DNA of 56,659 nt. Source: a virus. This document shows, in pieces, positions 1 through 56,659 of this stretch. Within the stretch, counting starts at the first letter, position 1. Every line of letters starts with the position of its first letter. Location of the stretch: positions 1 through 56,659 of the IMG/VR virus record IMGVR_UViG_3300027648_000002, one strand, 5' to 3'. The notes under the pieces are model-generated. The model was not told the origin of the DNA, searched no databases, and saw nothing but the letters and a program-made list of their open reading frames with translations. Made by a program: the position numbers and the translations under genes.

Positions 1-99
1 CATCGTCCACCGCAAGCTCGCCGAGTTGGTCGCAGGAGGACAGCTCACTCGAGCTATGCGCGAACGCACGCCTCGCTACCGCGTCGCTCAATCGACGCA
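1..99. repeat. Terminal overlap copy 1: bases 1-99 are identical to 56561-56659, the signature of a circularly closed contig
   Basis: Direct comparison of the first and last lines of the sequence. The match ends exactly at the contig end. Confidence 0.95.
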
Positions 100-3434: not shown

Positions 3435-4046
3435 TTAGAACGTCCCTTCGGTCAGTTCTGTCCATTTGCGTCCGGCCGAGATTTCGTCCCACGCTTTGGT
3501 ACCGCTGAGCCATGCGTCGGTGGCTTCGGTGATCGTGTACCAGATGCCTGCGGGGATCACTTCGTTGATCGCGTTGTAGAGCGCCTGCGTGGCCTTCCCG
3601 GTCCCGACGATTAGAATGAAATAGTAGGCGTTGGCTTCGCCCAACGGCCCGGTGCGTTCCCGGATCGTGAAGACTTTGGTTCCGATGACCCGTTCGATGG
3701 CCTGGTTGAGCGCTTCTCGGGTGCCGCGCGAGAACCCGGCGTGTTCTTCGACGATCGCTCGCGCTTCAGCTTCGGTCGCACCGGCCGGGATGCTCACCCC
3801 CACGTACATCCCGAGATAGCCGAGGTACTTGAAGGGGCACAGGGCGGGGCTCATCAGCTTGCCCCACGCGGCGACGTAGCCGGCTTCGCCGTCGGAGCCT
3901 TCTTCTTCGGCGAGTTCCAGGACGGCTTGGAACATCACGCCGAGCGCGTTGAGGTAGCGGTCGAGGTCCGTCTTGCCGGCGACGACTGGCCCCGTGTCCC
4001 AGGGCGCCATGTTCGTCTTCGCGCGGGTGGCGAACGACACGGTCAC
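3435..4046 (-). CDS. Baseplate protein, Mu gp48 / P2 gpI (DUF2313)-like
   Basis: Sits immediately after the baseplate J gene with an ATGA overlap. The WGKLMSP...EAEARAIVEEHAGFSRGT pattern fits this family. Confidence 0.65.
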   Translation of the reverse strand: MTVSFATRAKTNMAPWDTGPVVAGKTDLDRYLNALGVMFQAVLELAEEEGSDGEAGYVAAWGKLMSPALCPFKYLGYLGMYVGVSIPAGATEAEARAIVEEHAGFSRGTREALNQAIERVIGTKVFTIRERTGPLGEANAYYFILIVGTGKATQALYNAINEVIPAGIWYTITEATDAWLSGTKAWDEISAGRKWTELTEGTF

Positions 4047-5515
4047 GCCGAGCTCACCACCACGTAGCTGTTCAGGGTTTCAGGCAGCGGCGCGGGGCCG
4101 AGCAGCGTGATGTCCACGGTCCCGGACGGCGTGGCAGCCGTCCCGGTTTTCAGACCCGTGGAACCCGAGAAGACGTAGGCGACGCCGGGCACTCGCTCAA
4201 TCAGGCCGATGAGCTGGTTGTAGCGCACCACACCATAGCCCTGGGTTGCGTTCAACCAGGAGTTGCCGCCGGTGGTGGCGGCTTCGGGGTTTCCCCATTT
4301 CAATGCGGAGAGGTAGGAGACGATCGCGGCTTTGACGTTCGCTTCGACGGATGAGGCGGTGTAGCCGGACAGAATATGGACTTGCGTCGTCACATAGATC
4401 GGGTCGTACGAGGCGGATTCTACGAAGATGACGAAGTTCAGCTCACGGTATTGTTCGAGGTAGCTTTTGATGGCCGTGCGTGCTTCGCTGCTGAGCGTTT
4501 TGCCTTCGGTGTTCGTGACGAAGACGGTGACCGTGCGCTGGTTTTCGTAGGAGCCGACGGCCGTCAGGCTCTCTTTGCCGGGTTCTGCGGTGGGTTCCGC
4601 GGAGAGTTTGAGCGTTTTCGCGCCTTCGTTGACGGACACCACGGTCGTGCCAGCCGGGATGTCCACACCTTGGATGATTGTGCCGGGGTGCGTCTGCGTG
4701 CCCGACGTTTTTTCTGGGGTGATCCCCGTGAAGGATGTGACTTCGGTGAGTTCGCCTTTGCCGCCGCCGGCTTTTTTCGGGGTGCCCTGGAAGGCGTTGC
4801 TTTCCGGGTTGTACCCGTCGATCGCGGTGGCGCGGCCCACCTCTACGCCAGCGGGCAGAATGCTCGACGGGATGTCCAGCACGAATTCGGAGTAGTTGCT
4901 GGCCGTGATCGGCCGGGGTGCCTGGAGCGCCAGCAGGGACGCGAGGCGGTTCATGTATTCTTCGTCTGATTCCTGGTTGACGCCGCCTGCGGATTCGCCG
5001 ACGATCGTGACTTCGCTCACCCAGTTCAGCGGGCTTTCAAGCTGGAGGGTGCCGGTCAGCCCGTTGAATTCCGTGCCGCGTTCCGCAGCGACGAGTTCCA
5101 CTTTGACCGTCGATGTGCCTTCTGCGATGGTGACTTCGTTGGCGACGTAGAACGCGAGTTCGCCGATGCGAAGCGCCGTGCCGGCCGGGATCGTGTGTTT
5201 GGCGTATTTGCCGCCTTCTTCCAGCAGCGTCCAGGTGGTCGTGACCGTGGCCGCTGCGCCTTCGCGGTAGGCCACTTTCAGGAGTTCGGTCCCGAACTTG
5301 CGGAAGATCGCGGGCGGCACGACTGCGGCGATCGTCGCGGCGTTGGACGCCATCAGCGACAGGACGCCGATCAGGATGATCTCAAGATCACCGTCGTTGG
5401 CTTCCCAGCCGACGACGCCGCGCGCTTCGAGTTCTTCTTTGAGCTTGGCGAGCGCTTCGTCGGCGAGCGTTTCCGGGGACGTCGTCACCTGGGCTTCTAC
5501 GAACGCTTCGCTCAC
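4043..5515 (-). CDS. Baseplate J-like protein (Mu gp47 / P2 gpJ family)
   Basis: 490 aa. Family-typical layout following a gp25-like gene, with a conserved-looking N-terminal region (ILIGVLSLMASNAATIAA...). Confidence 0.85.
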   Translation of the reverse strand: MSEAFVEAQVTTSPETLADEALAKLKEELEARGVVGWEANDGDLEIILIGVLSLMASNAATIAAVVPPAIFRKFGTELLKVAYREGAAATVTTTWTLLEEGGKYAKHTIPAGTALRIGELAFYVANEVTIAEGTSTVKVELVAAERGTEFNGLTGTLQLESPLNWVSEVTIVGESAGGVNQESDEEYMNRLASLLALQAPRPITASNYSEFVLDIPSSILPAGVEVGRATAIDGYNPESNAFQGTPKKAGGGKGELTEVTSFTGITPEKTSGTQTHPGTIIQGVDIPAGTTVVSVNEGAKTLKLSAEPTAEPGKESLTAVGSYENQRTVTVFVTNTEGKTLSSEARTAIKSYLEQYRELNFVIFVESASYDPIYVTTQVHILSGYTASSVEANVKAAIVSYLSALKWGNPEAATTGGNSWLNATQGYGVVRYNQLIGLIERVPGVAYVFSGSTGLKTGTAATPSGTVDITLLGPAPLPETLNSYVVVSSA

Positions 5516-5817
5516 TGGACGTCCACCACGATCTTCCTGTTCGCCGGGGCTAGTTCTTCGAGTTCGGCGATCGTCAGTTCAGCGCGGGGCTCCCAGCGTT
5601 CGATGGCGAGCTGGAACGGCGCGAGGTCGAGCGGGAGCGTCTGGAAGAGTGGCTGTGGCACGCCGAACGTCGTCAGGTCTGCACGGAAGCCGGGTTCGCA
5701 CAGCACGATGTTCAGCACGCACTGGCTGATCTCTTCGGCGCTGCCCTGCTCAACGGTCGCGGCCACGCCCCGGCTGTTGAAGCTCATCGGCGAGGCGAGG
5801 TGTACGGGTTCGCCCAT
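5512..5817 (-). CDS. Baseplate wedge protein, GPW/gp25 family
   Basis: 101 aa. ISQCVLNIVLCEPGFRADLTTFG matches the gp25 core pattern (IxQSIxxILxTxPGERxxxPxFG). Confidence 0.85.
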   Translation of the reverse strand: MGEPVHLASPMSFNSRGVAATVEQGSAEEISQCVLNIVLCEPGFRADLTTFGVPQPLFQTLPLDLAPFQLAIERWEPRAELTIAELEELAPANRKIVVDVQ

Positions 5818-5830
5818 TCGCCGTCCCTCC

Positions 5831-6430
5831 TCAGTCGGTCGTGAACGTCACACCGTCGATCGATGCCTGTGTCGCGCCCGAGGCGAAGTAGACCGTGACG
5901 ACACCGGCGGCACTGACCGTGATAGCCGTTGCCGAGGCCTGGGTCGTGTAGCCGCCGCTCGAGTCAAAGGTCGTACCGGTTGGCCGGAACCCGTTGGGAA
6001 GCGTGAAGGGAGAAGATCCGCTCGCGCCGCCCCACAGTGAGCCGCGTAGACGCACTTCATTGGCCTTCTTGCGGTAGGCGACCGTGAGTCGGCCGGCCTG
6101 GTTGGCCCAGGAGTTGAGGAGCGCCGGTTCGATCCAGCCCGAGTCCGAGTCACTCCAGACGCCTTCCCACCACAGCACAACGGGAACGTCTGCTTCGCCG
6201 CCCGGGAAGCCGACAACGACGCGGGCGCCCTGTGCCGGCAGGCTCGTGCCGTATTCAGCGCTCCACGAGCACGCGACGGGCGCTTCCGTGGAGTGTTCGG
6301 GCAGAATCACCCACACCGGGTCGCCGAACGCCGCCGGCGCGGCCCGGGCCGTGCTCACATAGCCGGGAACTAGCGGACGCTCGTCAATGGTCGTGCCTGG
6401 CAGCGCTAGGAGCTTCGCGGGGTTGGGCAT
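5831..6430 (-). CDS. Baseplate spike / assembly protein V-like (Mu gp45 position)
   Basis: Start set at MPNPAKLL, which makes an ATGA overlap with the upstream stop. OB-fold-like GARVVVGFPGGEADVPVVLWW. Synteny supports the call. Confidence 0.65.
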   Translation of the reverse strand: MPNPAKLLALPGTTIDERPLVPGYVSTARAAPAAFGDPVWVILPEHSTEAPVACSWSAEYGTSLPAQGARVVVGFPGGEADVPVVLWWEGVWSDSDSGWIEPALLNSWANQAGRLTVAYRKKANEVRLRGSLWGGASGSSPFTLPNGFRPTGTTFDSSGGYTTQASATAITVSAAGVVTVYFASGATQASIDGVTFTTD

Positions 6431-8508
6431 CAGCTCGGCCGGTAGTAGCCCAGAAAGCCCGATGGCCCGGTCGTCGGAGCTGGACCTTCCTCGGGGTCGC
6501 CCTGCTTGCCCATGCTGATCGCGTTCCCGTTGCCGACGTACACCGTGACGTGTGTCGTGGCGGATTCGCTTTCGCCGAAGAAGCAGAGGTCCCCGGGTTC
6601 GGGGATGCCGACCTTCTTGCACTTGGCGATCATCGTGCCCGTGTCGCCGATCGGTTTGTAGCCCAGCCCCGACGGGTCAGGCTTCCCGGCCGCCTTGTAG
6701 CACAGCGTGGCAAACGCCGAGCAGTCCATCGTGCGCGGCGACGGCCCGAACAGCGTCCCGCCGTTTTCGCGGTTGCTCGCCTCCGAATAAACGTACTTGC
6801 CCTTTTCCGCCAGCGCCTTTTTCGCGGCTTCAGCGACAGAGCTTGAGCTGCCGGAGTTCGTCGCTGCTTCGGTCGACGCGCCCGTGCTTGAGGCTTGCGG
6901 CTCTGGGAGTGGTGCGACGGGCGGCTCGAGCGTGAATGTCGTGAAGGTGTCTTTGAGGATGTTGCGGGTGGCGTCGGTCACGATCCACGGGCCGTCGAAT
7001 GGCCCGGAGTTCTGGAAGAAGAAGACCTCGCCGGCACGGTAGGCGTAGGGCGGACAGGTCAGCTCCAGCTTGATCTCCGACGGGGTGGAGGGTTTGCTGA
7101 TCCTCGACTTGCGCTGCACGCGGCCTTTGACCTTGTGTGCTTGGCGGTATTCGAAGGCGGTGTTGTCGAAGTTGCCCGTGAACGGGATGTTGATGACGCC
7201 AGTTTCCTCGACCTTGTGTCCTTGGGCGTCGTCGTGGATCACCTTGTTCGCGGGCACTTCGACGTAGAGCGAGGGCTTCTGGGCGCGTAGGTCGGGGCCG
7301 TCCATGTAGTACAGGTTGTTGCCGTTGGTAAACGCGAACCAGGTGACCTGCTGGGCGAGACGGGTGATCGCTTCCCAGGAGTCTTCATCAGGGTTTTCGG
7401 TGCTGCCCCGTTTGAGCTGAGAGACATCTGATTCGCCGGTGGACTTCTTGCCGAGCGTCACGCCGCCGTAGGCTGCGACGATCGCCTGTGCCTCCTTGAC
7501 GTTGGGGCCGTAGTTGGCTGCGCCTTTGGAGGGTTCTCCGGCACCTGAGCCCTGGGTGGCCTGTGCGACTTCGTAGGCCGGGGCGCTCGGGTGTTTCTGT
7601 GCGTATTCGATCGCGCCGCCCGTCCCCACTTCCAGGGTGCCCTTGCTGTAGGACTTCGACAGGAACGCGTCCACTTCCGATTCGACGTCGCCTTTCTTGA
7701 TGCCGAGACTGGAGGCTGTGCTTTCTTCGAACTGCAATAGGCCCGCGCCGCTGGTCGAGAAGTCGTTCTCGGTGATGCAAGCCGCGATCAACGCTTCGGT
7801 CGCGAGCACGGGGCTCTGTTTGCTGTTCGCGGTGCCCATGGCCTCGTTGATGAGCGCGCGCTGTTGGGCTGTGGGCTTCTGGCCCTTGATCGTGATCTGC
7901 GCTCCGGCGCCTACACCGCGCGACTTGTTTTCCTTCTGGAGCACCTGCGCCTGGGCTTCGTCGGTCAGTTCGCCTTCGGTCGCCGTCGCGGTTTCCTGGA
8001 TCACGTTCAACGCCGGGCAGATGAACGTGATGCGCGGCACCTTGCCGTCGATACCCACCTGGTCGACCATCTGCTTGATGAACTGTGCGCGGGTGGTGGT
8101 GCCCGGCGCGACGCTCAATGGCCCCGGCTGTTCGCGTAGCTCCGCGATGATCTTGTCCTCGAACGTCAGGATCAGCGTGGGTTCTGAGAAGTTTGTCTTC
8201 ACTTCGACGGCGCAGAACGTCCACAGCCATCCGGACTTTTCGGGGAATTCCACTTCGATCGGATCGAGGATGCCTTCTTCGTTGGTGTCAACGAATCCGC
8301 TGAGGGTGAGAACCCAGTAGGGGTCCACGACGTACACTTTGATGTAGGAGGCACCCTCGATCTGGGTCTCTAGTTCCACCTCGGTGATCGCCTGGGCGAG
8401 TTCCTCGTGTTCTGGTGTGCCTTTCTTGAAGCGTTCCGCCTCGGAGATGATGCGTGTCGCGAGGAAGCGCGGGATGCGTGTCGCTGACGGGCGCTGTTCT
8501 TCGCTCAT
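6430..8508 (-). CDS. Baseplate hub (Mu gp44 / P2 gpD position) fused to an SLT-like and an NlpC/P60 cell-wall hydrolase domain
   Basis: Central ITENDFSTSGAGLLQFEESTASSLGI fits an E...GLxQ lytic transglycosylase pattern. C-terminal MDCSAF...PGDLCFF...THVTVYVGNGNAISMG is an NlpC/P60 Cys-His core. Confidence 0.8.
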   Translation of the reverse strand: MSEEQRPSATRIPRFLATRIISEAERFKKGTPEHEELAQAITEVELETQIEGASYIKVYVVDPYWVLTLSGFVDTNEEGILDPIEVEFPEKSGWLWTFCAVEVKTNFSEPTLILTFEDKIIAELREQPGPLSVAPGTTTRAQFIKQMVDQVGIDGKVPRITFICPALNVIQETATATEGELTDEAQAQVLQKENKSRGVGAGAQITIKGQKPTAQQRALINEAMGTANSKQSPVLATEALIAACITENDFSTSGAGLLQFEESTASSLGIKKGDVESEVDAFLSKSYSKGTLEVGTGGAIEYAQKHPSAPAYEVAQATQGSGAGEPSKGAANYGPNVKEAQAIVAAYGGVTLGKKSTGESDVSQLKRGSTENPDEDSWEAITRLAQQVTWFAFTNGNNLYYMDGPDLRAQKPSLYVEVPANKVIHDDAQGHKVEETGVINIPFTGNFDNTAFEYRQAHKVKGRVQRKSRISKPSTPSEIKLELTCPPYAYRAGEVFFFQNSGPFDGPWIVTDATRNILKDTFTTFTLEPPVAPLPEPQASSTGASTEAATNSGSSSSVAEAAKKALAEKGKYVYSEASNRENGGTLFGPSPRTMDCSAFATLCYKAAGKPDPSGLGYKPIGDTGTMIAKCKKVGIPEPGDLCFFGESESATTHVTVYVGNGNAISMGKQGDPEEGPAPTTGPSGFLGYYRPS

Positions 8509-9317
8509 ATCGGCCTGATTAGCGTGCGGGGCACCTTGACCTTTGTGCCCGCCTTGAGGACCTTCAGGACGTTACTGCCGATCGCACGGTTACCGGTGTT
8601 GGCTTGAGCGAGTTCCCGGGAGACTTTGTTGTCATGGCAGTAATGAGCGCCGATGTCCGAGAGGGTGCGCCACTTGCCGTCAACTGGCACCGTCACGATG
8701 TTGATCTGGCTGCCGACGGCTTCGCGGGCCTTCGCACGGTCGGCAGCCGAGTTCAGGCCGTCATCGAACGCGGGCGCCACGTACTCGGTGAGGGTGACGA
8801 CTGCGGCCTGGCGGACGCGGTAGCCGTTCTCGTCGCGCATCACGCCTGAGCCGAGCGTTTTGTTCCATTCGATGCCGGTGATGACCCAGTACAGCGATTT
8901 GGTCTGGAACTGCAAGGGCACGAGCGGCGTTTCGCCGCGACTGTCGAACGATTCGACCTGGATCAGCGGGCTGTTGCCTTCGCCGGGTGTGCCGACGCCG
9001 CCTTCCTTCTGCGTTTTGAACTTGACGCCGCGGCCGGCCATCCATTCGAGGATCTGGATGTCGGTCTCGACGGCTTTGCTGTCCGCGACGGTTGAGGTGT
9101 CGAACAGGATCGGCACCTGTAGCGTCATCGGTTCGTAGCCTTCGAGGATCGTCAGCGACTTGCGCTGGGGCCGCTTCACGCGGGCGTAGATCGCGTAGCC
9201 TTCTGTCGGCTGGAGCGATTCGCTGTTAGCGAGGACCGCGAATTCGTAGCGTTCGACGGCCTTGCCGTTCGTCAAGAGCCCTTTGAAGCGCACTTCGCGG
9301 GACGTGAGGTTGAGCAT
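8505..9317 (-). CDS. Tail protein with a C-terminal LysM-like domain (Mu gp43 / P2 gpX-like position)
   Basis: C-terminus VTVPVDGKWRTLSDIGAHY...ELAQAN...LKAGTKVKVP fits the LysM pattern. Lies between the tape measure and the hub. Confidence 0.65.
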   Translation of the reverse strand: MLNLTSREVRFKGLLTNGKAVERYEFAVLANSESLQPTEGYAIYARVKRPQRKSLTILEGYEPMTLQVPILFDTSTVADSKAVETDIQILEWMAGRGVKFKTQKEGGVGTPGEGNSPLIQVESFDSRGETPLVPLQFQTKSLYWVITGIEWNKTLGSGVMRDENGYRVRQAAVVTLTEYVAPAFDDGLNSAADRAKAREAVGSQINIVTVPVDGKWRTLSDIGAHYCHDNKVSRELAQANTGNRAIGSNVLKVLKAGTKVKVPRTLIRPI

Positions 9318-9329
9318 TGCGGCCTCCCG

Positions 9330-11069
9330 TCAGGCGCGTGCCTGCCTTTGCAGCGTGTGCAGCGCGACCGATTCCGCGAGATGACGTTGGCTCCACGGGT
9401 CAGAGATCAGGGTTTCTGTGACCTCCCTGGCACCGAGGTGCAGGTGAATGTGCAGGTCTTTGCCGCCCGCGTGCGTGGGCGCGGCGACCCCGTAGGGTGC
9501 GGGCGCCGCTGGCGTGCTGCTGCTCTTGCCGAGTTCACCAATGGTGTTGACGTGTCCGGCGCCGAGCCCGAAGGGCAGGTGCTTCTGAACGTAGTTGTAG
9601 CCTTCGATGACCTTGTTGATCGCCTTGATGACGAGATTAATCCCCGTTTCTACGCTGCCCACAATGGCGTGGAACACGCCGCCGACGAACGAGGCGATAC
9701 CGCCGAAGACCGTTTCGACGCCCTTCTTGATCTTCGTGAAGTTTTTGATGATCTCGACGATCACGAACGCGGGCAGCGAGAGGGTGGCGAGCAGCAGTTT
9801 CCAGTGTTTGATGATGAAGCCGACGACGGTCCCGACGACCAGCTTGATCACCGCGAAGCCTGTCTGCACGATTTCGCGGAACAGCCGTATGTGCACGTAG
9901 GCCTCAGCGAGTATAGCGATCAATGCGGCGACGGCAACGATCACTATGCCGACGGGGTTGGCGTCCATGACCATGTTTAGCAATGCCCAGGCGTCTGACC
10001 AGCTGGAGATCGAGGCCGCGAGCTGCATCACCATGAGCACCTGTGAGCCCGCGGCGAAGATGGCCTCCCCGGCGGCAGCGGCGATCGTCGCCGCACGCAC
10101 GGCTAGGAACACCGCGGCGAAGGCCGCTAGGGCTGGCCACGCGACGCGTATGACGCTCGCGACGACACCGAACGCCGTCTTGAACACGGCGCCGATCTGC
10201 TTGGAGTGGTTCATCACTCCCTGGGCCATGCTCGCCAGGAAGATCCCGACCTTCGTGATCGCGGGCAGCAGCTTGCGGCCGAGGTCCTCCTCCAAGAGGT
10301 CCAGCGTGTTTTTGAAGTTGCTCATCGCGCCCGATGCCGTCTTGCTGTAGGCGGCGGTCGCGTTGCCGTATTTCTTGGCGATGACTTCGTTGATCTGCAG
10401 TGCCGTGGCCTGTTTGTCGAGCAGTTCGGCGTGCTTGAGCAGTTCGGGGTTCTGCTTCTTCTGCGCTTCGGTGAGCTTGTCGACGTAGGTCTTGACGGGC
10501 TGGATGATCCCGAGGTACTGCTGCGCTCTGCCGGCTGTGCCGGCCTGGGCGCGAGCGACGATTTTCAGGGCCGCGCTGTATTCCAAGTGGGCACCGCGGG
10601 CAAGGTTGACAGCCGCCGCATTGAGCTTGACGGCCGTGCTCGCTTTGCCCGTGACCTGGATGAGCTGTGTCAGGCCGCGGGCTTCTTCGATCGGTGAAAA
10701 GCCGCCATGCGTCGCTGAGCGCTCGACGCTTTTGTTGAGCACGTCCATCTGCTGCTTGCCGGCCTGTCCGGTGTTCTTCAGCGCGTTCTGGAGCTGGGCC
10801 TGCTGTTCCTGCCACTGTTTGCCGCCCGAGATGACGTCCTTCAAACCGAACGCCACAGTGCCCAGGCCGAGCGCGCCGACGCCGTAGCCGATCATGTTCT
10901 TCAGGCCACCGAACGCCTTTGACAGCAGGCCGGACTTCTTGCCGGTCTCATCGAGGCTGTCGCCTGTTTTGTCGGAGGACTTTTCGACGTCCTCCATCGC
11001 TTTGTTCGCGCTCTTGCTGTCGCCCGTCAACAGCCACCGGACGATGCGTGTCTCCGCTGAGCCACCCAT
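9330..11069 (-). CDS. Tail tape measure protein
   Basis: 579 aa, with an A/G/Q/K-rich helical N-half and hydrophobic segments. Position after the chaperone genes. Confidence 0.85.
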   Translation of the reverse strand: MGGSAETRIVRWLLTGDSKSANKAMEDVEKSSDKTGDSLDETGKKSGLLSKAFGGLKNMIGYGVGALGLGTVAFGLKDVISGGKQWQEQQAQLQNALKNTGQAGKQQMDVLNKSVERSATHGGFSPIEEARGLTQLIQVTGKASTAVKLNAAAVNLARGAHLEYSAALKIVARAQAGTAGRAQQYLGIIQPVKTYVDKLTEAQKKQNPELLKHAELLDKQATALQINEVIAKKYGNATAAYSKTASGAMSNFKNTLDLLEEDLGRKLLPAITKVGIFLASMAQGVMNHSKQIGAVFKTAFGVVASVIRVAWPALAAFAAVFLAVRAATIAAAAGEAIFAAGSQVLMVMQLAASISSWSDAWALLNMVMDANPVGIVIVAVAALIAILAEAYVHIRLFREIVQTGFAVIKLVVGTVVGFIIKHWKLLLATLSLPAFVIVEIIKNFTKIKKGVETVFGGIASFVGGVFHAIVGSVETGINLVIKAINKVIEGYNYVQKHLPFGLGAGHVNTIGELGKSSSTPAAPAPYGVAAPTHAGGKDLHIHLHLGAREVTETLISDPWSQRHLAESVALHTLQRQARA

Positions 11070-11575
11070 CAGACGCCCTTGTCTTTGACGATGATGTCGG
11101 TCGTCTCGTGCACGGTCTTGAGGATCTCCAGGTGCACCCGGCCGCGGGTGGCGTCATAGGCGGGTGCCATGTAGCGGTGCATTTCCTGGCTGACCCACTG
11201 TGTACGGTCGCCGAAGACGGGGTGGCGGAAGTGCCCGCCGCGTGACGCTGTGGCTGCTTTGCTGGCGCCCGTGTTCCCCAACTCAAAAAGGCCCGCGATA
11301 GCGACGCCTTTGCCGCCCGCAACTACGGCGACGGTGGCACCGGCTACACGGACCTTGGCGGTGGGCGGTATCGTTTCGCTGTGCTCTGAGGCGATCGAGC
11401 GGGCCTCCACGGCCATGATCTCGCCGGCGTTGCGCAGCCGCTTGCGTAGATCCTTGCCCATCTTCCCGCGAGCCTTGTACAGCGACCGTGCGACCTGTCG
11501 GAAGTCCCTCGTGTCGATTCCGCCCGTGCCACGGACCGTGACGGTCGAGTTGCGCATCTCGGGTCCTCGTTTCAC
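11069..11575 (-). CDS. HK97 gp10-like tail or neck component
   Basis: FRHPVFGDRTQWVSQEMHRYMAPA resembles the gp10-family C-terminal pattern. The true start may be the ATG at 11557, which has a GAGGA RBS. Confidence 0.5.
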   Translation of the reverse strand: MKRGPEMRNSTVTVRGTGGIDTRDFRQVARSLYKARGKMGKDLRKRLRNAGEIMAVEARSIASEHSETIPPTAKVRVAGATVAVVAGGKGVAIAGLFELGNTGASKAATASRGGHFRHPVFGDRTQWVSQEMHRYMAPAYDATRGRVHLEILKTVHETTDIIVKDKGV

Positions 11576-11583
11576 GTGAAACG

Positions 11584-11877
11584 TCAGCTTCGGTCGGCGA
11601 TCTCCGCTGCGGTCTCGTTCGCCATGTCGTACACCGCCCGCAGGATCGTCAGGTAGGCCGGGTCAGCGCCGACGCTCAGCTCGAGCATCCCGGAGCCCTC
11701 GCACTCGCGGCACTCGCTGGGATGCGACCACCAGCGGCGCCTCGAGCTGCCCACGCCGCGACAGGCCGCGCATGCTTCGGTGAGGACGCCGCCGAACAGA
11801 CGCCGGAAGTCGACCTGGACGCCGAGCAGGGCGCAGTTCGCAGCCAGCCGGACTAGCTGGCTGCCTCGGATTCCCCC
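11584..11877 (-). CDS. -1 frame extension of the tail chaperone (T-like domain), carrying two CxxCxGxG zinc-finger repeats
   Basis: The -1 frame opens just after a TGA at 11890-11892 and stays open to the TGA at 11584-11586. Nearly all third positions are G/C. It encodes ...TEACAACRGVGSSRRRWWSHPSECRECEGSGMLEL.... No canonical start precedes the first motif. Confidence 0.55.
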   Translation of the reverse strand, partial: GGIRGSQLVRLAANCALLGVQVDFRRLFGGVLTEACAACRGVGSSRRRWWSHPSECRECEGSGMLELSVGADPAYLTILRAVYDMANETAAEIADRS

Positions 11878-12410
11878 AACTGCTCCTCGTCAATGTCGCC
11901 GTCGACGATGCCCTGCTTGCCCATCAGCAGCCCGGCGTGGACCACCACCTGCGCCTGCTGGGGGATGATGAGGAACACGGCTTCACGGTTCGTGATCTGC
12001 GCCCCGTCGCCTGGCGTGTGCAGCCCGAGGTATTCCGCGAACGCGACATCGAGCTTGTGCGCCTCCGCGTTGAACTGTGCGGCTTCGGCCGTGGCCTGCT
12101 CGTCGGCATCGGGGCCGACCCGGATCTCGACACGCTCACAGGACGCCAAGAGAGTGTCGGCGGCGTTCAGAAGCTCCTGTGTCGCTTCGGTGTCCTCCTT
12201 GTCTTTGCCGCGCACCCTCGCGTTGCGTGCCGCGATACGCCGCTGCGTCTTGTAGTCGACGAGGTGGTAGATGCCGACGAGCCGCCCGTCATAGCCGGGT
12301 ATCGCGAGCCGCTCGAGACGGTCGCCCTGCTGTTCGGCGCGCTGGCGACGCAACTGCTCCTGCAGCGACTCCGCGGGACGCGGAAGCTCGGTCGTGACGG
12401 GTGCGTTCAT
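11853..12410 (-). CDS. Tail assembly chaperone (G-like, zero-frame product)
   Basis: 185 aa, acidic, between the tube and tape measure genes. A G5 run lies 7 codons before the stop. Confidence 0.65.
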   Translation of the reverse strand: MNAPVTTELPRPAESLQEQLRRQRAEQQGDRLERLAIPGYDGRLVGIYHLVDYKTQRRIAARNARVRGKDKEDTEATQELLNAADTLLASCERVEIRVGPDADEQATAEAAQFNAEAHKLDVAFAEYLGLHTPGDGAQITNREAVFLIIPQQAQVVVHAGLLMGKQGIVDGDIDEEQLGESEAAS

Positions 12411-12424
12411 CCGTTCCTCCTCAG

Positions 12425-12847
12425 CTAGCTGATTGGCCCATTCGGGCTAATTTTCAGTTGCAGTCTGACCTCCTCGGAGGCACCCGATTTGTAGTTCGGG
12501 CGCATGACGCCCGCCGCGACGCCCGTGTATGTGAAGACGTTGCCGGTGGATGCCTGTTCGGGGCCGAGCAGCGTGTAGCTCGCGGTGACGGCTGCCGCGA
12601 TGACCACGGAGCGCTCCATCGCCTTGTATGCCGTGACCATTGCTTCTGACCACAGCCGTTCCACGGTGATCGGCGAGCGCTTGGAGATGCCACCCAGCGC
12701 GATCTGTTCCTGCATAGCGCCGGGGAACACGATCACTTCCTCGGCTGCGATGTCGCCGCCCTCCACCATATCCCACGATTCGGCGTCGAGCGAAAGTCCG
12801 GCGATCGATACGTGGATCGAGACCTGGTCACTTCGGTATATCCGCAT
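12425..12847 (-). CDS. Tail tube protein (contractile tail)
   Basis: 140 aa, immediately downstream of the sheath gene. Confidence 0.7.
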   Translation of the reverse strand: MRIYRSDQVSIHVSIAGLSLDAESWDMVEGGDIAAEEVIVFPGAMQEQIALGGISKRSPITVERLWSEAMVTAYKAMERSVVIAAAVTASYTLLGPEQASTGNVFTYTGVAAGVMRPNYKSGASEEVRLQLKISPNGPIS

Positions 12848-12849
12848 GA

Positions 12850-14328
12850 CTACGCTCCCACAGATTCAGTTATTGGGACGGACACTATGAACTCGCTGAT
12901 CGAGTTGGCGTACGGCGAGATCCGGACTTTGAGTTCCGCGTTGAGTTCGCCCGCCTGCTCAGTGGCCGGCGTGTTGATCGGTTCACCCACATTTGCCACG
13001 CCGGCGGTCGCTGCCGATTCGCCGAAGAGGGCGTTCTCTTTCCAGTGTTCGGCGATGACGCCCTGGAGTTCGCCCTGGAGCTTTGACAGCAGGATGCCGC
13101 GCCCGTCGATCGTCCGCCCGAAATACTTTTCGAGCAGTTCTTCTGACTGTGCGATGAGGTGCATGCGCTCGCGGCTCGCGGACGCCTGCCAGAAGATGCG
13201 GTCTGTGGCATAGGTCAGCGCGGTGACGAACCCGTACAGGCACGGGATGCCTGCGGGTGTCACATACCAGGAGTTGATGCCGGCTTCGGAGAGTTCGGTC
13301 ATCTGCGCGAGCGTGAACGTGTTCGTGAAGCTCTGCACGAAGTTGCTGATGCCGCCTGCGGGCTGCCCGGGTGGTGACCAGCCTGGCCCGATCGGCGCCT
13401 GGTTGTCGTTGCCCGTCGTGGCGACCTGTGCACACAGCGCGGCGATGACGCCAGACCCGGCGATTTTCCTCGTGGTCGAGGGAGTGAGCCCCGGCACTAT
13501 GCATGAGCTGGAGTGAAAGATCATGTACCCGGCGATGCCGGCCGCGTAGGCTTCTTTGGCGGTGATCAACGTCGCCGGGTTCGACGAGTCCGCGAGGTCG
13601 CAGATCGCGAAGCGGTTGTTTTTCGACGCCTGGCAGTGTTCGCCCATCAACACGTGGATGCCTTTTTTGACGGGTTCTTTTTCGGTGGCGGGTATCCACA
13701 CCTGGCCAGGACCGTAGGTCTTGAGGATACGTTCGAGAGCTTCTTTCACTGCGGCTTCCAGGATTTCCGTCGCGGGGTTGACGCCGCCCGTGAGCGCAGC
13801 CGCCGCAACGACTTTCAGAGCTTCGCCTTTGCCCGTCGCGTATTCGCTGCCTTCTTCCACGACGATGTAGGGCGAGTTGATGCCGAGGAATTCCGAGGCT
13901 TTGGTGCCTTTGATCGTTTCGAGGACTTCGCCGGCTTCGTTCTGGATGACGAGTTCGGTGGCGTTCGCTTCGATCTTGAGCTTGTTGCCGAGCGTGCCGC
14001 GGTACTTGGCTTTGACGATCAGCGTTTTCGCCGCGCCAGCAGTGGCGAGTTCTTTGGAGGCTGCGGTCGCCGCAGATTCTTTGCCGATCCGGGTGACGTA
14101 CACCTGCGCGCCGCCGAGCGCGAAGAACGCCTGGATCTCGTCGTACATCACAGCGCTGGTCGCTGTGCGTTCGCCGAACGTGGCGACGTATGCCGAGAGG
14201 CTCTTGATGAGCGTGGTGGTGAACGGGCCGGAGTCGGTCAGGCCGAGCGGGAAGCCCGTGCCGGTGGAGATGGATGTCCCCGCCGATTGAGCGGTCTCCG
14301 TGGCGACCACTTTGATGCCGAAGGGCAT
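12850..14328 (-). CDS. Tail sheath protein
   Basis: 492 aa. Position and sheath-like N-terminus (MPFGIKVV...GFPLGLT...AQVYVTRIG). Confidence 0.85.
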   Translation of the reverse strand: MPFGIKVVATETAQSAGTSISTGTGFPLGLTDSGPFTTTLIKSLSAYVATFGERTATSAVMYDEIQAFFALGGAQVYVTRIGKESAATAASKELATAGAAKTLIVKAKYRGTLGNKLKIEANATELVIQNEAGEVLETIKGTKASEFLGINSPYIVVEEGSEYATGKGEALKVVAAAALTGGVNPATEILEAAVKEALERILKTYGPGQVWIPATEKEPVKKGIHVLMGEHCQASKNNRFAICDLADSSNPATLITAKEAYAAGIAGYMIFHSSSCIVPGLTPSTTRKIAGSGVIAALCAQVATTGNDNQAPIGPGWSPPGQPAGGISNFVQSFTNTFTLAQMTELSEAGINSWYVTPAGIPCLYGFVTALTYATDRIFWQASASRERMHLIAQSEELLEKYFGRTIDGRGILLSKLQGELQGVIAEHWKENALFGESAATAGVANVGEPINTPATEQAGELNAELKVRISPYANSISEFIVSVPITESVGA

Positions 14329-24534: not shown

Positions 24535-25815
24535 TTAGTAGCCCGACTGAACTTCCAGCGCTTTTCCGGTCAAATACGCCAGTCCCGTCGGGTAGCGGAA
24601 CAGCGCGGCGGCGTAACCGTGGAGCATGAAGCGCGCCTGCAGGGTGCCCGACAGGGTCTCCTTGTCCACCATCGTGCTCTTCGCTGTCTCGAACAGCATC
24701 GAGTCGGTGGGGCGGGCGCAGACGATGACGTCCTGGTTGCCGTTGATATTCACCGGGATCGCATCCGACAGGTAGGTCGGCCAGCCCAGGATCGGCGGTG
24801 CCACGGCAGGGCGCGTGTCGTCGAACGTGTACGGGACGGGCGGCAGCGCCTGGTGGCCCGGCACCGCGAGAGGAAGTTTCTCTTCGTCCTCTTCCGAGCC
24901 AATGTACGCCCAGCGGGCCGTCCGCATCAGCCAGACCTCGGGCGACACTTTGCGGGCGTCGCCGAGCTGTCCTGCGACCTTCCCGAGTTCCTTGAAGATT
25001 TCATAGCCTTTGGTGCCGGTCGCGGTTACTACCGACACGCCGCCGGCGCCTGTCGTGAGGTTCAAGATGCCTGCGATCTGCTGGTGGGATTTGCCGGTGC
25101 CGTTGAACAGCGCCGCCTCTAGAGCTTCGTCGTAGTCCTCCAGCAGGTCCTTGAGGATCGAGTGGTCCAGGTGCGCTCCGGCCGGGGACTGTTCGAGTAG
25201 TTGCATCGAACAGCCGGAGTTGCCGCTGAACGTCTCCACCCACGATTCGGCTGCGGCGTCGGTGAAGTCCTGGTCGGGGACCGGCGAGACATCCTGCGTC
25301 GCTTCAGCAGCGGTGCCGGGCGCCAGGATGCGCGGCAGCTTGATTTCCGAGACTTTGGCTGTCAGCGGGAAGGTGGGGATCAGGCTCGCGAGGACACGCT
25401 TGGCGCGCGGCGCCGTGGCGAAGGCCTCGTTGGCCCACAGCGGCGGCGAGAAGTAGCCGCCTTGGCCATCGATGCGGCTCGGGTTCACGCGCGTCTCAAG
25501 GCCCTCGGGGGCGCTGCGGTACACACGCTCCAGAAACCGCGGCATCTCGATGTCCATCTCGGCTGCGTGGCGTTGCAGGCGCCCGCTGGCCTCCTGGTCG
25601 CCGTTGATCTCGGCGAGCGCTCGGTCACGGAAGTAGCTGGTCGGGGTGTGCCGTTCGTAGGTCAGGGGTTCGCGGGTGGTGCGCACCTCGGGCCGGCGCA
25701 CGCGCTCTTCGGCGAGCACAACGTCGCGCAGCTCCGGCGGGATCGCCTCCCATGTCGCGCGGACCTCGTCGATCGCCGCGCGTGCCTGCTCCGCCGTGCG
25801 GGTCTCGTCAGTCAT
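24535..25815 (-). CDS. Second HK97-fold capsid protein, paralog of 22675..24387
   Basis: PLTYERHTPTSYFRD, RVNPSRIDGQGGYFSPPLW and CSMQLLEQSP...LEDYDEALEAALF align with capsid gene 1. Confidence 0.85.
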   Translation of the reverse strand: MTDETRTAEQARAAIDEVRATWEAIPPELRDVVLAEERVRRPEVRTTREPLTYERHTPTSYFRDRALAEINGDQEASGRLQRHAAEMDIEMPRFLERVYRSAPEGLETRVNPSRIDGQGGYFSPPLWANEAFATAPRAKRVLASLIPTFPLTAKVSEIKLPRILAPGTAAEATQDVSPVPDQDFTDAAAESWVETFSGNSGCSMQLLEQSPAGAHLDHSILKDLLEDYDEALEAALFNGTGKSHQQIAGILNLTTGAGGVSVVTATGTKGYEIFKELGKVAGQLGDARKVSPEVWLMRTARWAYIGSEEDEEKLPLAVPGHQALPPVPYTFDDTRPAVAPPILGWPTYLSDAIPVNINGNQDVIVCARPTDSMLFETAKSTMVDKETLSGTLQARFMLHGYAAALFRYPTGLAYLTGKALEVQSGY

Positions 25816-27314
25816 CGTGCGCCCCTCAACGCGAGCAGCTCAAGCTCCTGCTCAGCGCGCGTGGTGAGATCCGGCACACGTGCCCGCGCTGGCTCAGGCT
25901 CAGGCTCGGGCTTGTCGGGGTTCTCGACGCCGAGCACCTTCGCGAGTTCGGGGAGTGCCTGGTCGAGCTGGTCGTCGGCTTTGGCGATCCGGTCCAGCAC
26001 GGCGGTCAACAGCGTTTCGCGGGCGGTGGAGATCGGTTTGCCGACGCGCAGCTCGACTTCGCCATCGGCGGAGCGGATGCTTGTCGTCTTGCCTGTGGAG
26101 GGGCTTGCACCGAACGTGACGGCGCTGACGTCCCCGCCGTGCAAGGTGACGCTGCGGACTTTGCGGTCGGTCCAGTCCTCGTTCCACGCGTCGTCGGTGC
26201 AGCGGAACGCGAAGCTCATTTCGTCGACCAGGCCGCGTTCCATCTTCAGCTTCAACCGTTGTGCGTCGGGGTCCTCTGTGTCGAACTTGGCGTCGACCTT
26301 CAGGCCGCGCTCGGTCTCCTCGAGCATGAGGGTGCCGGGGATCTGCGAGTCCGGGCGCTCGGTGCGCGCGAGCGGCAGGCCTTCGTGTTCGACGCGGAAC
26401 ACCACGTCGGGGTTCTCCTTCAGAGTGCGCCTGAAGGCCCCGCGTTCGATCGTCTCTGTGAACCCGCCGACGCTGTAGGGCACGTTCGTCAGCGACGCGT
26501 AGCCCTCGAAGTGCATCATGCCGTCCTCGTCTACGCCACGGAACTCGCACTCGCGGACCGAGAACTGACGGTGCTCCAGGCTCTTGCCGTTACGCAGGCT
26601 TTCCGCACGTTGGCGGCGGCGCTCCAGCGCCCGCTGGCCGCTGCGGGAGTCCTTCGCGATTTCGCCGCTGCCGTCACAGTCAGGGCATTCCGTTGAGCCG
26701 CCCTTGACTTTGCCGGAGCCTTCGCAGGTCGGGCATTCTTCCATGTCCTCGGTGCTGTTTTCGACGGCGCGCTGGTTCGCCTCATACGTCGTGACGCGGC
26801 GCACCTTCTCGGGGTCGCCGAGGGTCACGCCGTCATCGTCGGCGATCGTGTACGTCACCTGCCACAGGTCGCCTTCGTATTCGTAGACGGCCCACTGTTC
26901 GGTCATGTCCGTGACGTAGGGGCCGTAGATCGCTTCGCCCTTCTTCTTTTTCGGCAGCGAGTCTGAGATGGCCGATTCGACGAGCTGGCGGCGGTCGTTG
27001 AAGGTTTCGCGTTCCTCAAGCGTTGACCAGACGCCCTTGGTTTCTTTCAGAGACCCGTCCGAGTTCCAGTTGTCGGGGATCAGGCTGGACAGTTTCAGCG
27101 CCTTGGCGCGCTTGATGACGTGAGCACGGATTGAGTCGTGGTCGGCGTTGCCGCGCCCGACGGCTTTGATCGCTTTCTTGAGGTCGTCTTCGTCGGCGAT
27201 CGGGTATGACCCGTCGGCCATCGCTTCGCCGTTCTTGGCCATTTCATCGCGGTCGGCCTGTTTGTACTTCGCGCGCCACTCGCGCGTCAGCGAGCGCTCA
27301 ATCGTCAAGGACAT
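25812..27314 (-). CDS. Prohead maturation protease (HK97 / S78 family) with a long N-terminal extension carrying a DnaJ-type zinc finger
   Basis: C-half: FEGYASLTNVPYS...GAFRRTL...VVFRVEHEG...DEMSFAF. N-half: YPIADEDDLKKAIKAVGRG and CPTCEGSGKVKGGSTECPDCDGSG. Confidence 0.9.
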   Translation of the reverse strand: MSLTIERSLTREWRAKYKQADRDEMAKNGEAMADGSYPIADEDDLKKAIKAVGRGNADHDSIRAHVIKRAKALKLSSLIPDNWNSDGSLKETKGVWSTLEERETFNDRRQLVESAISDSLPKKKKGEAIYGPYVTDMTEQWAVYEYEGDLWQVTYTIADDDGVTLGDPEKVRRVTTYEANQRAVENSTEDMEECPTCEGSGKVKGGSTECPDCDGSGEIAKDSRSGQRALERRRQRAESLRNGKSLEHRQFSVRECEFRGVDEDGMMHFEGYASLTNVPYSVGGFTETIERGAFRRTLKENPDVVFRVEHEGLPLARTERPDSQIPGTLMLEETERGLKVDAKFDTEDPDAQRLKLKMERGLVDEMSFAFRCTDDAWNEDWTDRKVRSVTLHGGDVSAVTFGASPSTGKTTSIRSADGEVELRVGKPISTARETLLTAVLDRIAKADDQLDQALPELAKVLGVENPDKPEPEPEPARARVPDLTTRAEQELELLALRGAR

Positions 27315-56448: not shown

Positions 56449-56659
56449 CGGTCCAAGACTCAGCCGTCCTCGACGCTGTTGAGGCCGCCGCACGCGAGCC
56501 CGGCGGGGACTGGCCGACCGCGCGACAGATCTGCCGGCAGATGCCAGGCGTGAGCCCCAACATCGTCCACCGCAAGCTCGCCGAGTTGGTCGCAGGAGGA
56601 CAGCTCACTCGAGCTATGCGCGAACGCACGCCTCGCTACCGCGTCGCTCAATCGACGCA
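56445..56659 (+). CDS. 5-prime part of a junction-spanning gene for a hypothetical, possibly winged-helix DNA-binding protein; it continues at base 100
   Basis: ATG at 56445 overlaps the stop of the preceding ORF (ATGA). The frame stays open to the contig end and matches ORF-track 26..325. The joined product is 146 aa. Confidence 0.6.
   Translation, partial: MTVQDSAVLDAVEAAAREPGGDWPTARQICRQMPGVSPNIVHRKLAELVAGGQLTRAMRERTPRYRVAQST
56561..56659. repeat. Terminal overlap copy 2
   Basis: Identical to bases 1-99. Confidence 0.95.

Follow-up and report, generated by a model that had tools for sequence, protein, structure and literature searches.

Probable programmed −1 ribosomal frameshifting at a hairpin-associated GGGGGAA site in a putative tail assembly chaperone gene pair of a contractile-tailed phage

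The window analysed here is the whole 56,659-nucleotide (nt) stretch of IMG/VR virus record IMGVR_UViG_3300027648_000002, in which a gene like those of tail assembly chaperones, here called G, is followed on the minus strand by a T-like open reading frame (ORF) in the −1 frame. The interpretation favoured, with a probability of about 0.88, is that this second frame is expressed by programmed −1 ribosomal frameshifting at a hairpin-stimulated G GGG GAA heptamer, which would yield the G protein and a minor GT fusion with roles like those of the lambda proteins, and with a lineage-specific zinc-knuckle insertion in a loop of the T part. At the 12 loci for which DNA was available, the slip site, the spacer and the hairpin are conserved, and the hairpin covaries.

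These 12 loci represent distinct metagenome lineages, including that of the window. Seven G homologues were found at 60–100% identity, a profile search added four at 30–37%, and one further locus (L012/L013) was recovered from scans of metagenomes and IMG/VR with the 7-sequence G alignment; eight of the lineages belong to the clade of the window and four are distant. Single-protein G searches and T-extension alignment searches revealed no additional IMG/VR locus, and no prophage relatives were found in two scans of 185,579 reference genomes. Among GenBank phages, no match was obtained to positions 11000–13000 (megablast) or to the GT fusion (tblastn).

The frame-0 ORF was confirmed (coordinates of all features are given in Table 1), and its 3′ end reads GAG GAG CAG TTG GGG GAA TCC GAG GCA GCC AGC TAG, with the G5 run at 11877–11873. 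In the −1 frame, a TGA at 11892–11890 lies four codons before the run, after which the frame is open to the TGA at 11586–11584, that is for 96 codons past the GGG codon, and the predicted GT fusion has 275 amino acids (aa). The product of this frame contains TEACAACRGVGSSRRRWWSHPSECRECEGSGMLEL (longer readout, GIRGSQLVRLAANCALLGVQVDFRRLFGGVLTEACAACRGVGSSRRRWWSHPSECRECEGSGMLELSVGADPAYLTILRAVYDMANETAAEIADRS). The initial annotation of this DNA, made from its letters only, had located the ORF, the G run, the upstream TGA and the end of the −1 frame at these positions, had read the motifs CAACRGVG and CRECEGSG from that frame, and had noticed both its almost uniform G or C third positions and a first canonical start codon, GTG, inside the first motif; all of these observations hold.

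The G+C content at third codon positions (GC3) of frame 0 is 0.83–0.97 up to about 11880 and 0.6–0.7 thereafter, and that of the −1 frame rises from 0.23–0.5 to 0.80–0.97 past the slip site. GC3 places the frame change at about 11880–11850, so the coding frame truly changes at the site. Beyond the G stop, 25 of 48 codons differ between L001 and L003, 21 of them by synonymous and 4 by non-synonymous changes. Judged by GC3 and by this substitution pattern, the −1 frame is under protein-coding selection.

The same data bear on the possibility that the −1 frame is an artefact, either of a homopolymer sequencing error that split one ORF or as an untranslated chance ORF of G+C-rich DNA. At 65% G+C, spurious ORFs of some length are frequent, many overlapping ORFs are present in the window, and even the +1 frame is partly open at the locus. 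However, the two-frame layout recurs, together with the frame-0 tail E-x-x-A-A-S-stop, in 12 lineages of different metagenomes, three contigs of the same phage from other metagenome samples (L009–L011) are identical to the window over the 3.1–6.6 kb compared, and both GC3 and the ratio of synonymous to non-synonymous changes show coding selection on the −1 frame. An artefact is essentially refuted.

At the slip site, the eight lineages of the window's clade, with 60–100% identity in G, have NTG GGG GAA, the preceding codon being TTG, ATG, CTG or GTG. In the four distant lineages, at 30–37% identity, its place in both alignment column and codon phase is taken by a canonical heptamer, G GGA AAC or G GGA AAG, and an in-phase slippery heptamer is thus found near the end of a G gene of 155–185 aa in all 12. 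In the window, GGGGGAA occurs only once on both strands, against 5.8 ± 2.7 occurrences expected from dinucleotide-preserving shuffles, which is consistent with the motif being avoided at other places in the genome. As a proxy across the whole G family, the dipeptide that the slip site specifies (G-E, G-N or G-K) was counted, and is present within the last 14 residues of 122 of 160 proteins (99 G-E, 17 G-N and 6 G-K). The remaining 38 proteins lack it, and many of them end in ...D-F-x(2-4) instead, which suggests that some members of the family slip at a different site or in a different direction.

Bacteria and phages are also known to make trans-frame products by transcriptional slippage, and in the window's clade the site does contain a homopolymer run; RNA polymerase would slip on the G5 run, and some mRNAs would carry one extra G. 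Known slippage-prone runs are nevertheless longer and usually of A or T, G5 being short, and the distant relatives keep the same frame arrangement with GGGAAAC or GGGAAAG and no long run. In addition, a hairpin at a spacing of 6 nt, as described below, is a signature of ribosomal frameshifting rather than of polymerase slippage. Slippage of the polymerase is considered very unlikely.

Regarding the heptamer itself, the initial annotation had described it as not a textbook X XXY YYZ site. This is right in that G GGG GAA is non-canonical at the YYZ position, but the motif is documented and very common at the tail-chaperone frameshifts of actinobacteriophages, and is replaced by a canonical one in the distant relatives. 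GGGGGAA is the ‘fivetwo’ slippery motif reported for about a thousand chaperone frameshifts of SEA-PHAGES genomes (PMC10885494), and re-pairing of tRNA-Glu with GGA via a G:U pair was proposed in the same paper, that on PRFect (PMC10885494). In corynephage phi16, GAGG, GGGGGAA and a pseudoknot were described at the tail chaperone genes (PMC5506516).

The presence of GGGAAAC or GGGAAAG in the same register in the relatives argues for a placement of GGG in the P site and GAA in the A site, in which case tandem slippage would produce the junction ...EEQLG-E-IRGSQ.... A slip in the P site only would produce ...LG-G-IRGSQ..., which is the junction that had been predicted in the initial annotation; either product would have the same length. 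The exchange between GGGGGAA and GGGAAAC/G at an identical position represents a natural comparison, and supports tandem P/A-site slippage with G:U re-pairing.

A downstream RNA structure was looked for, as had been proposed in the initial annotation, and a candidate stimulatory hairpin was found 6 nt after the heptamer, with the G stop TAG (11855–11853) placed at the top of the stem and in the loop, and a minimum free energy of −20.2 kcal/mol. RNA structures 5–9 nt downstream are frequent at frameshift sites of the G/GT kind, though not obligatory. A hairpin is present at this same distance in all 12 lineages, with stems of 9–11 bp and loops of 5–7 nt. On the 12-lineage alignment, 98.3% of the cells are standard pairs, and three of the pairs show compensatory changes (A-U/G-C/U-A; G-C/C-G; and C-G to G-C, A-U or G-U). 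The covariation score of 0.33 was reached by none of 500 shuffles, the slid controls giving 0.008–0.056, and pairing fell to 16–45% when the partner strand was slid. The same helix was predicted independently by RNAalifold.

The three third-codon positions that fall within the 3′ arm do not change among the seven lineages of the window's clade that were compared, and all of the next 15 codons vary. Two rare codons are also retained in the stem, CTA (3% of Leu codons) and GCT (6% of Ala codons). Loop sequences vary between lineages, so that a conserved pairing of the loop with downstream sequence, as in a pseudoknot, looks unlikely. No known RNA family of Rfam was detected in 11400–12500.

Upstream of the heptamer, GGAG or AGGA is found at a distance of 4–5 nt in 11 of the 12 lineages though the encoded residues differ, L006 having GAAGAA instead. 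In dnaX, the spacing of the stimulatory Shine-Dalgarno sequence is about 10 nt; the motif described here is closer, also encodes conserved Glu residues and is not shared by L006. Possibly it stimulates frameshifting, in which case its spacing would be unusually short.

In each of the 12 lineages, the −1 frame stays open past the slip site as far as the next gene's start. In the relatives, the extension has 55–60 aa and can be aligned throughout as (S/G)(Q/E)L(V/I)(R/K/E)LAA.C.LLGVPVD..RLF...DP.YL..L.A..., which defines a conserved T-like domain of about 56 aa. Comparison of the homologous chaperone loci, another proposal of the initial annotation, revealed no start codon at a conserved position in the −1 ORF of the 12 lineages, and L001 and L002 have no ATG, GTG or TTG in the whole ORF. 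Neither is there a conserved Shine-Dalgarno motif before any of the candidate starts, with only weak matches of 4–5 nt at non-conserved positions. In the window, the first of these start codons is the GTG at 11754, and its use would halve motif 1.

These results are difficult to reconcile with a separate small gene in the −1 frame, translated by independent initiation or by termination–reinitiation at the G stop from a non-canonical or lineage-specific start. Such a gene could be imagined in L006, where GTG and TTG are found at codons 7 and 9, right at the G stop, and the gene callers used in public assemblies, when they do not miss the −1 ORF, annotate fragments of 34, 40, 48 or 56 aa. Also, within the overlap the conservation of the −1 frame is inseparable from frame-0 constraint. 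However, a separate gene leaves unexplained both the in-phase heptamer of 12 out of 12 lineages and the covarying hairpin at its fixed 6-nt spacing, and is regarded as improbable as polymerase slippage. No homologue of the −1 extension alone was found among 5.8 billion predicted proteins, because gene callers do not call the ORF, and searches of the T part against PHROG and Pfam gave matches to its zinc motifs only.

Within the T-like part, the window carries the insertion GGVLTEACAACRGVGSSRRRWWSHPSECRECEGSGMLELS between ‘RLF’ and ‘DPxYL’, where the relatives have a four-residue turn (VDGE, EDGD or TTDD). It is found in the window's lineage only, the other 11 having neither the insertion nor the cysteine pair at this place. 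Therefore, the ‘zinc-finger T-domain’ of the initial annotation does not stand as such, and consists instead of the conserved domain plus this lineage-specific insertion. The GC3 of the insertion in the −1 frame is 0.87–0.97, matching the rest of the gene, and the identity of the three contigs from other samples shows that it is not an assembly artefact.

The two CxxCxGxG motifs of the insertion are 12 residues apart and, to judge from their pattern, would most likely make up a single Cys4 zinc knuckle like that of anti-TRAP or half of a DnaJ zinc centre. As in DnaJ (PF00684) and anti-TRAP (PF15777), the motif is repeated, and the two copies are enough for one Cys4 site; in contrast to DnaJ, the putative zinc-binding module is embedded in a loop of a phage chaperone extension. 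Membership of the DnaJ domain family PF00684 was considered and rejected, as there are two repeats and not four and the score lies below the cut-off. Searches of GenBank phages with the insertion (tblastn) gave only motif-level matches with E ≥ 1, in Xanthomonas phages, and no title or abstract linking zinc fingers to tail assembly chaperones was found in the open-access literature, which is absence of evidence only.

Translated in six frames, the window contains C..C.G.G only four times, always in coding frames and as two pairs. The second pair, CPTCEGSG-8 residues-CPDCDGSG (26664–26735), is anti-TRAP-like (E 9e-6) and lies in an N-terminal extension of about 250 aa of the prohead protease, upstream of its S78 domain. 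The statement of the initial annotation that the zinc finger of T mirrors the one in the protease is correct at the level of the motif, but without a relation at the DNA level. A recent duplication of the protease zinc finger was rejected as the origin of the insertion, since the best DNA alignment covers 27 nt and the motif only.

Both pairs might be functional additions and not neutral ornaments, acting in DnaJ-like client holding or recruitment of the host Hsp70, or in redox- or zinc-sensitive assembly, though this is unlikely. If it were true, a zinc module encoded after the slip site would have its dose set by the efficiency of frameshifting. By analogy with known phages, the T part and the prohead protease would both be proteins of assembly only, absent from the virion. 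The insertion would mean that a folded module can be accommodated in the central loop of the T part, and is a small curiosity unless a function is shown.

The assignment of G as a chaperone was approached through its family, its fold and its gene context. The family comprises at least 238 clusters at 50% identity (profile search, E ≤ 0.001). An AlphaFold2 model of G built with a 93-sequence alignment had a mean predicted local distance difference test score (pLDDT) of 90.3 and a predicted template modelling score of 0.79. When this model was compared by Foldseek with viral models, an uncharacterised Caudovirales protein was matched with E 8.7e-7 and a template modelling (TM) score of 0.60, followed by the tail assembly chaperone of Brevibacterium phage Cantare (E 5.4e-4, TM about 0.5) and, more weakly, by several tail assembly chaperones of actinophages. 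This predicted fold is supportive but modest evidence for a chaperone. The order sheath, 140-aa putative tube, G, −1 ORF, 162-aa gene and tape measure is identical in all related loci. The phage, uncultured and of high GC, has a contractile tail.

In the mechanism proposed, the majority of ribosomes would make the 185-aa G and stop at its TAG, and a minority would pause on the heptamer, its GGG codon occupying the P site and its GAA the A site. The pause would be due to the G+C-rich hairpin, possibly aided by the upstream GAGGAG. Paused ribosomes would slip one base back and read the −1 frame to its TGA, giving GT. If the proteins act as in lambda, the tape measure protein would be coated by the G part and tube subunits would be recruited by the T-like part, with neither present in the virion. 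The zinc knuckle would be a self-contained module protruding from the domain, either stabilising it or offering an additional surface for binding. A G–T fusion by −1 slippage at the G run had already been put forward in the initial annotation, and is now supported by the site, the hairpin, the −1 frame of 12 lineages and the absence of a conserved start.

Several points weigh against this interpretation. The folding energy of the hairpin is unexceptional for a G+C-rich sequence (z = −1.38, with 16 of 200 shuffles as good), and the case for the hairpin therefore rests on its covariation and on the conservation of synonymous sites; however, the stem lies within doubly coding sequence, where part of the conservation could be driven by the proteins, and most of the compensatory changes split just two clades. 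At GGGGGAA, tandem slippage requires tRNA-Glu to re-pair through a G:U pair in the middle of the codon, the alternative being a slip in the P site only. Slippage, its efficiency and the junction peptide are all inferences.

Further points of the same kind concern the proteins. G has no match in Pfam, PHROG or NCBIfam, only 1 of 93 family members matches the ‘tail assembly chaperone’ family phrog_344, and the top match in the PDB, the HK97 tail assembly chaperone 2ob9, has an E of 0.29. With sequence links to known chaperones as weak as these, membership of the chaperones rests on synteny and on the recoding architecture, and even the gene order departs from that of lambda, by an extra conserved gene between T and the tape measure gene. 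The zinc knuckle is read from its motifs only: the match of the insertion to Pfam DnaJ_CXXCXGXG (E 6e-4, 20.4 bits) is below the cut-off of 32.7 bits, a weak match to the anti-TRAP knuckle PF15777 (E 0.05) is also below the curated cut-off, and a single-sequence AlphaFold2 model of GT was unusable, with a pLDDT of 45.

Among known systems, Xu, Hendrix and Duda reportedly described in 2004 a conserved frameshift in the tail genes of long-tailed phages, the chaperones gpG and gpGT of lambda being the example; the dataset is cited in PMC10885494. Like lambda G/GT, the locus has two overlapping ORFs between the tube and tape measure genes, the second of them in the −1 frame and without a start, and a heptamer a few codons before the first stop; the lambda heptamer, G GGA AAG, is that of some of the distant relatives. 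It differs from lambda in its contractile tail, in the 160–173 aa of the additional gene before the tape measure, in the use of GGGGGAA and in the zinc-knuckle insertion of T, and there is no detectable sequence similarity. The gpE/gpE+E′ pair of P2 is a tail chaperone frameshift of a contractile-tailed phage. The locus resembles it in being flanked by the sheath and tube genes on one side and the tape measure gene on the other within a myovirus-type tail module, and in having a −1 extension, although the two were compared by synteny only and no sequence similarity was found.

The closest likeness in the site itself is to the SEA-PHAGES chaperone genes and to phi16, which share the identical motif GGGGGAA in a high-GC genome (PMC10885494, PMC5506516). 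As in phi16, a Shine-Dalgarno-like sequence, GAGG in that phage, lies upstream and an RNA structure downstream, but the structure found here is a simple conserved hairpin and not the H-type pseudoknot proposed there (PMC5506516). The distance from heptamer to stop is short, 15 nt in the window compared to a mean of 26 nt in SEA-PHAGES (PMC10885494). In contrast to both, the locus has no sequence match among GenBank phages, and its G family has no Pfam or PHROG model.

In all likelihood, the locus is an ordinary, previously unannotated member of the G/GT kind with the standard slippery motif of actinophages, and it departs from the standard only in the zinc-knuckle insertion of its T part. A corrected annotation would join the two frames at GGGGGAA into the 275-aa GT, a pair that every public gene call of these contigs had missed or fragmented, and the search defines a putative chaperone family that had not been annotated.

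Table 1. Positions of the features discussed, numbered along the window.
Feature	Positions	Strand	Remarks
G-like tail assembly chaperone ORF (putative), frame-0 product	11853..12410	minus	185 aa; ORF confirmed
−1 frame extension (T-like)	11584..11874	minus	96 codons + TGA; GC3 switch, protein-level conservation
Slippery heptamer G GGG GAA	11871..11877	minus	X XXY YYZ register of frame 0; invariant in 8 lineages
Spacer TCCGAG, 6 nt	11865..11870	minus	same length in 12/12 lineages
Candidate stimulatory hairpin	11840..11864	minus	10-bp stem (11864–11855 with 11849–11840), 5-nt loop
Shine-Dalgarno-like GAGGAG, possible stimulator	11883..11888	minus	5 nt upstream of heptamer
Lineage-specific insertion in T-like loop	11674..11793	minus	39–40 codons; ends ambiguous by a few codons
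CxxCxGxG motif 1, CAACRGVG	11749..11772	minus	Pfam DnaJ_CXXCXGXG
CxxCxGxG motif 2, CRECEGSG	11689..11712	minus	Pfam DnaJ_CXXCXGXG
NlpC/P60 tail protein gene	6430–8508	minus	692 aa
Gene without assigned function	8505–9317	minus	270 aa
Tail length tape measure gene	9330..11069	minus	579 aa; phrog_3981, phrog_58 and other tape measure families, E down to 2e-20
Conserved gene	11069..11557	minus	162 aa; phrog_11991, E 7e-13; between chaperone and tape measure genes
Putative tail tube gene	12425..12847	minus	140 aa; by position only, directly after sheath gene
Tail sheath gene	12850..14328	minus	492 aa; phrog_23, E 8e-20
Prohead protease gene	25812–27314	minus	Peptidase_S78 at residues 257–412

The first 99 nt of the window (1–99) are identical to the last 99 (56561–56659), a terminal assembly overlap that indicates a closed phage genome, circular or terminally redundant, of 56,560 bp. 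No tRNA genes were found in the window. The tail module is preceded by a portal gene, the S78 prohead protease and an HK97-type capsid gene. The homologue of the tape measure gene in L015 carries PF10145. The putative tube gene has 140–141 aa across all related loci and no family match in searches of profile libraries.

The phrog_11991 gene (5698–6180 in L001, and its equivalents) has 160–173 aa and occupies the same place in 12 of 12 lineages. Its start overlaps or abuts the stop codon of the −1 frame in most relatives, where its translation would be coupled to the minority of ribosomes that make GT unless it has its own ribosome entry. In the window, a perfect 16-bp palindrome, CGTTTCACGTGAAACG, is found at 11568–11583, immediately past the stop of the −1 extension; the Shine-Dalgarno motif of this gene and its ATG (11557) follow. 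It is unique in the window and is not present in the relatives, in which the T stop overlaps or abuts the next start (TAATG or TGATG). The palindrome could be a protein-binding site or a small hairpin.

In the head genes, residues 32–338 of the portal protein of the window match positions 4001–4900 of L022, a viral contig of 105.9 kb (IMGVR_UViG_3300031754_000002), with 71% identity (tblastn), at the locus of a 702-aa ORF (4133–6241). A homologue of the window's protease was not found after this portal-like locus, a pattern that suggests mosaic exchange of head genes.

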